Part shown: positions 15,129 to 16,454 of the stretch, in pieces
Layout of the letters: each line of letters starts with the position of its first letter
Position numbering within the stretch: position 1 is the stretch's first letter
NCBI GenBank assembly: GCA_964391095.1
Contig: CAYMJA010000001.1
Span: 1-59,795 of the forward strand
Origin: an uncultured Candidatus Saccharibacteria bacterium
GTDB taxonomy: Bacteria; Patescibacteriota; Minisyncoccia; Minisyncoccales; GWA2-38-27
DNA length: 59,795 nt
Direction of reading: 5' to 3'
Position numbers and translations under genes: made by a program
Notes under the pieces: model-generated
What the model saw: only the letters and a program-made list of their open reading frames with translations
Databases searched by the model: none
What the model was told of the DNA's origin: nothing

Positions 15129-16454
15129 ATGACTAAAAAATACTTCATAATTACATATGGATGTCAGATGAACCATTCGGATAGTGAACGGATTGTTGCT
15201 GTTTTGGAAAAAGCAGGATATAAACCGGCTTCAAAAATAGATAAAGCTGATTTCATTGTGGCTAATATGTGCTCGGTGAGGCAGTCAGCAGTAGATAGGG
15301 TATATGGCAAAATCAGAGATTTTGCTAAACTGAAAACTCAAAACTTAAAACTTAAAACTGTATTAACCGGATGTATTCTAAAAAAAGATAGGAAAAAATT
15401 TAAAGAAAAATTCGACTTTATTCTCAATATTAAAAATTTAGCGAAATGGCCAAAAATTTTATCAAACTCCCCTAATCAAATAGCTGACTATCATTCATTA
15501 TTAGAAACAGGCGATTATCTTAAAATTCAATCAAAATATTCAAATAACTTTTCGGCTCTTGTTCCTATCTCCAGTGGCTGCAATAATTTTTGCGCTTATT
15601 GTGTCATTCCTCTCACTCGAGGACCTTTAATTTGTAGGCCCCACAAAGATATACTAAAAGAAGTTCAAGGTTTAATCAAAAATAAATATAAAGAAATTTG
15701 GCTTTTAGGCCAGAATGTTAACGATTATCACTCCTCTGTTGATATTTCTGTTGATTTTCCAAAATTGTTAAAAATGGTAAATGATATTCCAGGGGACTTT
15801 TGGCTTCGATTTACTTCTCCTCACCCAAAAAATTTTTCAGATGAATTAGTTAATGTTATGGCAAAATCTCAAAAAGTTACTCCTTATTTAAATCTGCCAG
15901 TTCAATCAGGAGATGACGAAATTTTAAAGAGAATGAACCGTTCTTATACTGTGAAACAATACAAGAGTTTAGTTAAAAAAATTCGGAAAAAAATTCCAAA
16001 TATTGCCTTATCCACCGATGTAATTGTTGGTTTTCCCGGAGAAACAAAAAAACAATTTCAAAATACTGTAAAATTATTTAAACAGATTAAATTTGATATG
16101 GCTTATATTTCCAAATACTCTCCAAGACCGGGAACAGCCGCGGCAAAAATGGAAGATAATATCCCCTGTCAGGAAAAAGAAAGAAGATGGAAAATTTTAA
16201 CAGAAATCCTAAAAGAAACAGCCCTTGAGAAGAATAAAAAATATATTGGAAAAACCGTTGAGGTTTTAATTGATGAAATTAAAAATGGCTTTATTTTTGG
16301 AAAAACAAGAAGTTTTAAGACAGTAAAAATTAAACAAAAAATAAACACTAGAAATGATAAATTAAAAAACGGAGATATTATCAGGGTAGAGATCGTCGGA
16401 ATCGACTCCTTCGGGTTATACGGAGAATTGTTGGTATTAAATACTAAAAAATAA
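15129..16454 (+). CDS. miaB: tRNA-i6A37 methylthiotransferase MiaB (radical SAM)
   Basis: YFIITYGCQMNHSDSE, CNNFCAYCVIP radical-SAM Cys triad, TRAM C-terminus. The start is placed after the upstream terminator hairpin. Confidence 0.9.
   Translation: MTKKYFIITYGCQMNHSDSERIVAVLEKAGYKPASKIDKADFIVANMCSVRQSAVDRVYGKIRDFAKLKTQNLKLKTVLTGCILKKDRKKFKEKFDFILNIKNLAKWPKILSNSPNQIADYHSLLETGDYLKIQSKYSNNFSALVPISSGCNNFCAYCVIPLTRGPLICRPHKDILKEVQGLIKNKYKEIWLLGQNVNDYHSSVDISVDFPKLLKMVNDIPGDFWLRFTSPHPKNFSDELVNVMAKSQKVTPYLNLPVQSGDDEILKRMNRSYTVKQYKSLVKKIRKKIPNIALSTDVIVGFPGETKKQFQNTVKLFKQIKFDMAYISKYSPRPGTAAAKMEDNIPCQEKERRWKILTEILKETALEKNKKYIGKTVEVLIDEIKNGFIFGKTRSFKTVKIKQKINTRNDKLKNGDIIRVEIVGIDSFGLYGELLVLNTKK
15332..15359 (+). 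repeat. In-frame heptamer array (NAAAACT)x4 in miaB
   Basis: GAAAACT CAAAACT TAAAACT TAAAACT, encoding [10 protein letters not shown]. The same peptide occurs in pheT. Confidence 0.85.

Follow-up and report, generated by a model that had tools for sequence, protein, structure and literature searches.

Two heptamer arrays in miaB and pheT encode a common peptide

The DNA stretch analyzed here (the window; 59,795 nucleotides of contig CAYMJA010000001.1, assembly GCA_964391095.1) contains the genes miaB, encoding a tRNA methylthiotransferase, and pheT, encoding the beta chain of phenylalanyl-tRNA synthetase, each of which carries an in-frame tandem array of the heptanucleotide AAAACTN on its coding strand (Table 1). 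The two genes lie 13 kb apart. The window is part of contig C1 of an assembly of 567,614 bp in 18 contigs with 35% G+C, whose nearest named relatives by protein are Parcubacteria, Nealsonbacteria, Gribaldobacteria and Minisyncoccales metagenome-assembled genomes (MAGs). Loci, genomes and proteins of relatives are cited below by our L, G and P numbers.

Specifically, a perfect (NAAAACT)x4 occupies positions 15332-15359 (+) in miaB, with the sequence G AAAACT C AAAACT T AAAACT T AAAACT, and Tandem Repeats Finder (TRF) extended this array to the limits listed in Table 1 (period 7, 4.7 copies, 92% matches). Its counterpart at pheT site 1 (28575-28602, reverse complement) is T AAAACT T AAAACC C AAAACT T GAAACT, the same unit with two mismatches (TRF: 4.1 copies, 77% matches). 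The in-frame stretches cover 12 amino acids in miaB and 13 in pheT, and the peptide common to MiaB and PheT is a 10-mer. An earlier note on this DNA, made from the sequence alone, had reported an identical heptamer-coded peptide in the two enzymes; the shared 10-mer is real, but the 11-mer quoted there is present in pheT only. The two arrays are 83% identical, and five of their ten codons differ, every difference being synonymous.

The search proposed in that note, for the peptide KTQNLKLK and for AAAACTN repeats elsewhere, gave no other occurrence in six frames of the whole assembly, where both KTQNLKLK and (AAAACNN)x3 were confined to the miaB/pheT pair. Within the window, a 27-nt pattern with at most three mismatches matched just these two sites, with 0 matches in 100 dinucleotide shuffles. 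Among 520 long open reading frames (ORFs), the 10-mer is the longest identical peptide between two ORFs after exclusion of paralogous, duplicated and low-complexity pairs, where paralogy was judged by eye and the low-complexity exclusions were poly-E and PE repeats.

A local hairpin of 10-12 bp lies directly 5' of each AAAACTN array on the mRNA strand, at 15305-15327 (+; arms GGCAAAAUC...GAUUUUGCU) and at 28604-28630 (-; arms GCUCGUGAGUGU...GCGCUUAUGAGU). In predicted folds the AAAACTN direct repeats are unpaired, and the z-scores of -2.8 and -3.9 come from the adjoining hairpins. On these predictions, an RNA structure formed by the arrays themselves was rejected.

Table 1. Heptamer arrays of the window and the two genes discussed in the text
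Feature	Position	Strand	Evidence or score
miaB, tRNA methylthiotransferase; ORF open from 15072	15132..16454	+	UPF0004, Radical_SAM, TRAM; orthologues named MiaB; 7MJV, E=1.4e-69
miaB heptamer array (AAACTNA)x4.7, 11 aa encoded	15327..15359	+	TRF, codon test, structure model
pheT, phenylalanyl-tRNA synthetase beta chain, short form without B2 domain	26651..28819	-	B3_4, B5, core, FDX-ACB
pheT heptamer array 2, (AAATCCC)x4 then (AAAATCC)x3-4, 19 aa encoded	28268..28324	-	TRF, 8.6 copies
pheT heptamer array 1 (AAAACTN)x4.1, 2 mismatches, 11 aa encoded	28575..28603	-	TRF, orthologue lengths, codon test, structure model
gatA (amidase) in-frame array, AAAYCCC family, 11 aa encoded	32065..32088	-	TRF
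gatC/mreB junction, single array (ATACTTA)x5.3	33168..33204	.	TRF
M50 (RseP-like) protease gene, in-frame degenerate heptamer array	34876..34906	-	TRF
L15/secY inverted pair AGTATTA / ATACTTA, long hairpin	57034..57113	-	-25.3 kcal/mol, z=-6.5
L6/L18 inverted pair CAGCGAA / TTGTTCA	58445..58500	-	-11 kcal/mol, z=-3.3
Inverted pair TATTAAG / ATACTTG directly upstream of the S8 gene	59609..59690	-	weak fold, z=-1.7

Period-7 arrays across the genome and its relatives

In the whole assembly, TRF found 79 period-7 arrays of at least three copies, compared with 4-9 in third-order Markov shuffles; the corresponding counts for periods 6, 8 and 9 were 33, 12 and 26, and no period was commoner than 7. 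Within coding sequences, 37 period-7 arrays were present, whereas permuting the codons within each gene, which preserves amino-acid and codon usage, left only 1-6. Period 7 was the commonest period there although it is not a multiple of 3, and period-8 arrays numbered 7 versus 2-5 after codon shuffling. About 30 different heptamer units are in use, the most frequent being AACAATG, AAGTATT, AAAAATC, AAAATTG and AAATCCC.

After overlapping calls were merged, 74 arrays remained, of which 36 lie wholly inside ORFs, 18 across gene ends and 20 between genes. These locations rest on a simple long-ORF gene map that is 89% coding; because 38 arrays nevertheless fall at gene edges or in intergenic DNA, the non-coding fraction is strongly enriched. 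Inside ORFs, 27 of the 36 arrays are A-rich on the sense strand, and the T-rich ones encode stretches rich in F, L and I that, judged from sequence alone, look hydrophobic. PNPKSQIP-like peptides are encoded by AAATCCC-type arrays in five ORFs, those of pheT and gatA plus three others, and KSQIPNKS is common to pheT and an ORF on contig C4.

Many intergenic arrays are inverted pairs folding into hairpins (Table 1). Start and stop codons are overlapped by a few bases of arrays in the ribosomal-protein operon pairs and by the gatC/mreB array. The possibility that heptamer hairpins of the window enclose small 'intervening-sequence protein' genes was rejected, since the inverted arrays merely separate ribosomal-protein genes and secY.

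The excess extends to relatives, with 87 period-7 arrays versus 3-14 in shuffles in AT-rich ones (559 kb of candidate phyla radiation (CPR) loci), and 1 versus 0-1 in GC-richer ones (at least 42% G+C, 111 kb of loci). The arrays are members of a class of period-7 simple repeats found throughout the lineage in AT-rich Parcubacteria. Period-8 arrays were also raised in the AT-rich relatives L001-L074 (35 versus 4-11 in shuffles) and only slightly so in this genome (12 versus 3-5).

The miaB and pheT site-1 arrays sit in ancestral segments of conserved length

The MiaB array segment has equal length in 105 of 120 close orthologues and keeps it in distant MiaB genes, those of Firmicutes among them (e.g. 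LKNLKISNPNLII), and the alignment to the solved Bacteroides MiaB structure 7MJV (RLEFFHSLKKKKRGLIVGVLGC) has no gap at the array. In the AlphaFold model, the array-encoded residues run from the last part of helix 39-58 through a turn into the beginning of strand 63-68, which leads to the conserved TGC cysteine, at a predicted local distance difference test (pLDDT) score of 87-92. At PheT site 1, the 13-residue length is identical in 96 of 120 orthologues, and the structure model shows the segment as a coil that links helix 60-70 to strand 84-89. The sequence flanking either AAAACTN array shows neither terminal repeats nor target duplications. The miaB and pheT site-1 arrays therefore sit in ancestral, length-conserved segments and are not insertions.

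These alignments bear directly on the earlier note, which had pointed to a slippage or mobile origin and had named a lack of other occurrences, together with ancestral segments in both families, as the finding that would overturn it. The insertion or mobile version falls by that measure, both segments being ancestral and length-conserved and the assembly holding no further copies of the unit. The accompanying argument, that only arrays with a total length divisible by 3 survive, is inapplicable because no sequence was added at either site.

In contrast to these two sites, pheT array 2 is a true insert, of 21 aa, in the B3_4 loop, where residues 166-182 have pLDDT below 50. Inserts of 1-37 aa, many of them heptamer-coded, are present at this point in 45 of 120 orthologues and absent from the remaining 75. 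Modulo 7 aa, the insert lengths of the 120 orthologues are flat, so that the 21-nt (7-aa) length steps anticipated in the note do not appear there between species.

Within the organism, the pheT arrays are identical in three assemblies, including two contigs from other samples that were reached via the identical neighboring PheS protein. Metagenome contigs scanned with a gapped pattern for the region of pheT array 2 gave no match, and a sequence-cluster look-up for miaB returned a start-codon variant only. The contig from the second sample (L166) is identical to the window over 5.8 kb, apart from its last 55 bases (L166 5868-5922, window 26218-26272, in gyrB), which hold 15 substitutions, mostly 3 nt apart; this looks like a chimeric contig end joined to a related strain. 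In the miaB of a Nealsonbacteria MAG (L071), one unit of the heptamer array is 8 nt long (AAAACTTC) and the frame shifts by +1, representing either a frameshift truly present in the repeat or a homopolymer error of long-read sequencing. This sole frameshifted miaB orthologue is off by 1 nt, not 7 nt.

GC-rich palindromes of the CCTGCCGG..GGCAGG type were found inserted in frame in the middle of arrays in several relatives: at L011, L012, L007 (pheT), L110 (= G018 pheT) and L164 (= G013 miaB), and in proteins P0010, P0018, P0033, P0068, P0077, P0150 and P0202. The insertions lie at sites 1 and 2 of pheT and at the site in miaB. This reflects either unusual permissiveness of these sites or a preference of the palindromic element for heptamer arrays rich in A.

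Codon-level periodicity and concerted evolution of the units

Synonymous codons were resampled for the same peptide with the codon usage of this genome, and lag-7 nucleotide identity was compared. For the miaB array of the window, the observed identity was 0.83 against an expected 0.54 (p=0.0015). The orthologous miaB arrays L027, with (AAACTAC)x4, L028, with (AAAACTC)x4, and L026 reached 0.93, 0.90 and 0.83, respectively, values attained by 0 of 2000 resamples in each case, and distant MiaB genes were at expectation. Codon-level lag-7 periodicity was also found at pheT site 1 in the orthologues L009, L003, L005 and L001 (p<=0.004).

The units themselves differ among orthologues. At pheT site 1 they include (AAGTTCC)x4 (L003), (AAATTCG)x4 (L005), (NAAGAAT)x4 and (CAAATYC)x4, and the orthologous peptides KSEIRNPKSEIR, NYELRITNYELR and ELRIKNQESRIK all back-translate to exact heptamers, with the whole unit replaced in every copy. 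Correspondingly, the two halves of the peptide covary, as in KSEIRNP-KSEIR, NYELRIT-NYELR, ELRIKNQ-ESRIK and NWKLEIG-NWKLM of PheT and in KLQTTNY-KLQT and KLKVKNE-KLKV of MiaB. Protein lag-7 identity was higher within than between sequences (pheT 0.32 versus 0.20; miaB 0.457 versus 0.420), and 0 of 500 shuffles reached either value, although these within-versus-between tests ignore phylogeny and are therefore to be read as indications rather than probabilities. Lags other than 7 were flat, save for a smaller lag-9 excess in miaB. Among array-bearing relatives, unit identity was higher inside an array than across genomes at matching positions (pheT 0.80 versus 0.50; miaB 0.84 versus 0.73). Array position is kept over family- and order-level divergence while array sequence turns over. 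Many orthologues without an array at the miaB or pheT site appear intact.

An explanation at the protein level only would hold that both enzymes need a K/L-rich amphipathic stretch and that AT richness with few codons produces an apparent 7-nt period, the shared peptide being a chance coincidence. The conservation of KLKxxNPxLK in MiaB, in length and pattern as far as Firmicutes and within an ordered helix-turn-strand, fits such a view, as does third-position identity between the two arrays that, with five of ten codons, is no more than the shared peptide allows; moreover, the codon test for pheT in this genome was not significant. However, the same requirement would not account for the 37 coding arrays where codon shuffling yields 1-6, for codon choice that is significantly periodic in miaB and shows a lag-7 excess over resampling in several orthologues too, for the replacement of whole units in all copies at once among orthologues, or for the filling of intergenic DNA by the same repeat class. 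We consider this explanation hardly probable.

Conserved position with sequence turnover is also what would be expected if periodicity rather than sequence mattered, that is, if the in-frame arrays were functional cis-elements selected as mRNA binding sites, translation-rate signals or frameshift-prone contingency switches. This, too, seems improbable to us. The gene miaB is dispensable in model bacteria, whereas pheT is essential, so that on/off switching of pheT by a 7-nt slip would be lethal. Binding sites could serve a protein that reads heptamer repeats, such as the OB folds of the cold-shock type, each of which binds one heptamer. CspB has been discussed as a binder of heptamer repeats (PMC4679880), and each window array is directly preceded by a hairpin; yet many orthologues that lack an array at the same site appear intact, no length variants were found in the three assemblies, and the roughly 36 genes that harbor arrays are unrelated and share no theme.

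Origin of the shared peptide

A 7-nt unit read in frame runs through all three phases per 21 nt, and same-strand arrays of one unit therefore give one 7-aa cycle. With AAAACTN as the unit, there is room for no more than about six peptides, K-L-K-T-[Q/K/E]-N-[L/S]. At the miaB site, AAAACTY is the norm of the clade (KLKTQNSKLKT in many orthologues); it fits the ancestral KLKxxNPxLK motif, and the unit is clearly inherited vertically. The pheT linker is free to adopt many units, and AAAACTY is found there in several lineages (P0013, P0030, P0047, L007 and L009).

The miaB and pheT sites were paired in 40 relatives, and in none of the 17 in which both could be read did the units match. In G005, for example, pheT has ELRMKDEELR and miaB KLKTQNSKLKT, and in G010 pheT has NSKLQVISCKLQ and miaB ELKTTNHKLQT. 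A genome-specific unit preference, or exchange between miaB and pheT, was accordingly rejected. The synonymous differences in five of ten codons, together with the unmatched units in 17 relatives, point to convergence in a small unit space rather than to transfer or a genome-specific unit. The predicted structural contexts are also unlike, the MiaB peptide spanning a helix end, a turn and a strand and the PheT peptide lying in a coil linker.

Mobile or copied DNA, either a small element inserted into both genes or gene conversion between miaB and pheT, is very improbable and largely refuted. The recurrence of one unit on the coding strands of genes separated by 13 kb would suit it, and miaB and pheT alike have T at the variable base (AAAACTT, N-L), where C (N-S) prevails among relatives; furthermore, an element of another kind, the GC-rich palindrome described above, does insert at both sites in relatives. 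Nevertheless, no length was added at either site relative to orthologues or to the solved structure, neither terminal repeats or target duplications nor further copies in the genome were found, half of the codons differ synonymously, and the miaB unit is the clade norm under vertical inheritance.

Favored explanation and mechanism

Taken together, the two AAAACTN arrays are probably independent heptamer arrays that are translated, a length-conserved overlay arising from a lineage-wide repeat habit rather than from a mobile element or a shared protein function. The earlier note had favored a nucleotide-level origin over protein-level selection, and in this respect it is borne out by the roughly 10-fold period-7 excess genome-wide and in coding sequences, the codon periodicity of miaB, the concerted units and the unlike structures.

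At the miaB site and pheT site 1, no DNA was added; instead, an ancestral K/L-rich segment of fixed length (KLKxxNPxLK in MiaB, the 12-aa linker in PheT) would have been overwritten, and neighboring units copied into each other would keep the array periodic, which amounts to concerted evolution. The likely route would be replication misalignment at a 7-nt offset. In one path, a transient slip followed by realignment would copy the bases of the neighboring unit and leave the length unchanged; in the other, units would expand or contract and purifying selection would remove variants that are out of frame or of the wrong length. At the fixed-length sites we lean weakly toward the former, because no variants of plus or minus 7 aa were found there in about 150 orthologues and because the lengths at site 2 do not run in 7-aa steps. 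In protein regions that accept additional residues, such as the B3_4 loop of PheT, the repeat process may add sequence. The analysis establishes the periodicity, the excess, the in-frame location, the conservation of position and length, the concerted pattern and the absence of a DNA origin common to both arrays; replication misalignment, and the view that neither peptide is functional in itself, are inferences.

Several observations weigh against this explanation. Site 1 of the window pheT is degenerate or decayed, with a lag-7 identity of 0.59 against an expected 0.51 (p=0.19). The K-L-K..N-P..L-K motif of MiaB is an old, structurally constrained part of the fold, and part of the 7-aa pseudo-period of MiaB is for that reason protein-level; the shuffle tests of concerted evolution, as stated above, are indications. 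Variants of plus or minus 7 aa are absent from the orthologues at either fixed-length site, and with the pheT arrays identical in three assemblies from different samples no length polymorphism was seen, so that slippage is deduced rather than observed.

Loss of mismatch repair was tried as a cause and rejected. MutS (MutS_V, PF00488) was absent from this genome, from 39 of 40 relatives and from 14 further CPR genomes (G041-G054), with the control positive in 11 of 14 model genomes; since array-poor, GC-richer relatives are equally without MutS, its absence cannot explain the bias.

A bolder proposal, which we regard as possible but on balance unlikely, is that AT-rich Parcubacteria possess a length-preserving process in which replication or repair, by templated copying at a 7-nt offset, time and again turns short parts of housekeeping genes that encode linkers, loops and helix ends into arrays, which then stay homogenized for family- to order-level times. 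If so, the DNA copying machinery, not protein selection, would dictate part of essential proteins, and identical peptides would arise convergently in unrelated enzymes.

On the favored explanation, the amino acids in short parts of essential proteins can be set by nothing more than a bias in DNA copying, and unrelated enzymes can come to share peptides. For homology inference, short shared peptides of this kind are no evidence of a shared domain, and in alignments and phylogenies of CPR proteins the array sites evolve in concert, not independently. Fixed-length, position-conserved arrays would also offer a natural system for studying, in uncultured, repair-poor bacteria, repeat homogenization without length change and the bacterial preference for a period of 7 nt.

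Other features of the window and genome

A tRNA-Phe gene of 85 nt with anticodon AAA was called by ARAGORN at positions 1054-1138 (-) of the window; neither this length nor this anticodon is usual for tRNA-Phe in bacteria. Outside the window, contig C5 of this genome contains three consecutive ORFs twice (3764-5205 and 6372-7813), with extended identical stretches and 116-173 shared 8-mers per pair, reflecting either a 2.6-kb tandem duplication or an assembly artefact.

Comparison with known repeat systems

According to the accounts of the survey by Mrazek, Guo & Shah (2007) given in PMC4692102 and PMC4679880, no class of long simple-sequence repeats (LSSRs) is more abundant than heptanucleotide repeats in most bacterial genomes, for which an origin by polymerase slippage has been proposed. 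The same accounts state that intragenic repeats mostly have units with a length that is a multiple of 3 and that surveys stress an intergenic location (Mrazek et al. 2007 via PMC4679880, PMC4692102); Parcubacteria and other CPR lineages are not among the genomes they describe as covered. The arrays reported here resemble LSSRs in their head-to-tail 7-nt units, in the over-representation of period 7 and in the many unit sequences per genome. They are longer than chance (0 of 100 shuffles; 79 versus 4-9 arrays), and period 7 stands above neighboring periods. As to the copy-number variation that slippage would produce between strains or close relatives, pheT array 2 ranges from 0 to 37 aa among orthologues, but not in 7-aa steps, and the arrays of the three assemblies are identical. 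Unlike in the LSSR surveys, roughly every second array is part of a translated reading frame, housekeeping enzymes included, and arrays lie at orthologous, length-conserved positions where they evolve in concert.

Intergenic heptamer families include the short tandemly repeated repetitive (STRR) sequences of heterocystous cyanobacteria such as Calothrix PCC 7601 and the GGGGAYT/GGGAATC repeats of Nostoc and Xanthomonas (PMC4692102). Like these, the present arrays are often intergenic and sometimes form inverted pairs able to fold into stem-loops; in the STRR, Xanthomonas and Nostoc families, the array at a given intergenic site can differ in length and sequence from one close relative to the next. 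Those families are G- or C-rich and intergenic, and G-quadruplex formation has been discussed for them, whereas the arrays here are A/T-rich, occur in another taxon and have no G-quadruplex potential. The STRR units that Mazel reportedly gave in 1990 are CCCCAGT, TTGGTCA and CAACAGT. In this Parcubacteria-like organism the units are A/T-rich (AAAACTN, AAATCCC, AAAAATC, AACAATG and AAGTATT), and half of the arrays are in ORFs.

The TAACTGA direct repeats of marine Beggiatoaceae, cyanobacteria and Bacteroidetes, for which a translated 7-aa cycle was considered (MacGregor 2015, PMC4679880), are likewise heptamer tandem repeats scattered over the genome. They differ in having a single dominant unit, mostly upstream of start codons and suspected of horizontal spread, whereas about 30 units are used here, with vertical inheritance at fixed gene positions.

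Phase-variable contingency loci of host-adapted pathogens, for example the heptameric repeats in Haemophilus HMW adhesin promoters (PMC8262952), share with the present arrays a short repeat whose unit is not a multiple of 3, so that within a gene a one-unit slip shifts the frame. In contrast, the hosts here are housekeeping genes, with pheT essential, and the arrays are short (4-9 units), partly degenerate and without strain-level length variation, no length variants being present in the three assemblies.

Rickettsia palindromic elements provide another case of DNA that is not protein-driven being translated inside essential proteins at permissive sites. However, they are discrete, length-adding and palindromic, with many near-identical copies, whereas the miaB and pheT site-1 arrays have neither added length nor defined ends. 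As judged against such elements and against miniature inverted-repeat transposable elements, no added block was found relative to orthologues or 7MJV, and there are two sites only, with no terminal structures.

In the literature covered, which is incomplete, we found no report of heptamer repeats in Parcubacteria or the CPR, nor of position-conserved, in-frame heptamer arrays evolving in concert. The miaB and pheT arrays are a coding-region, length-conserved form of the known bacterial heptanucleotide-repeat excess.

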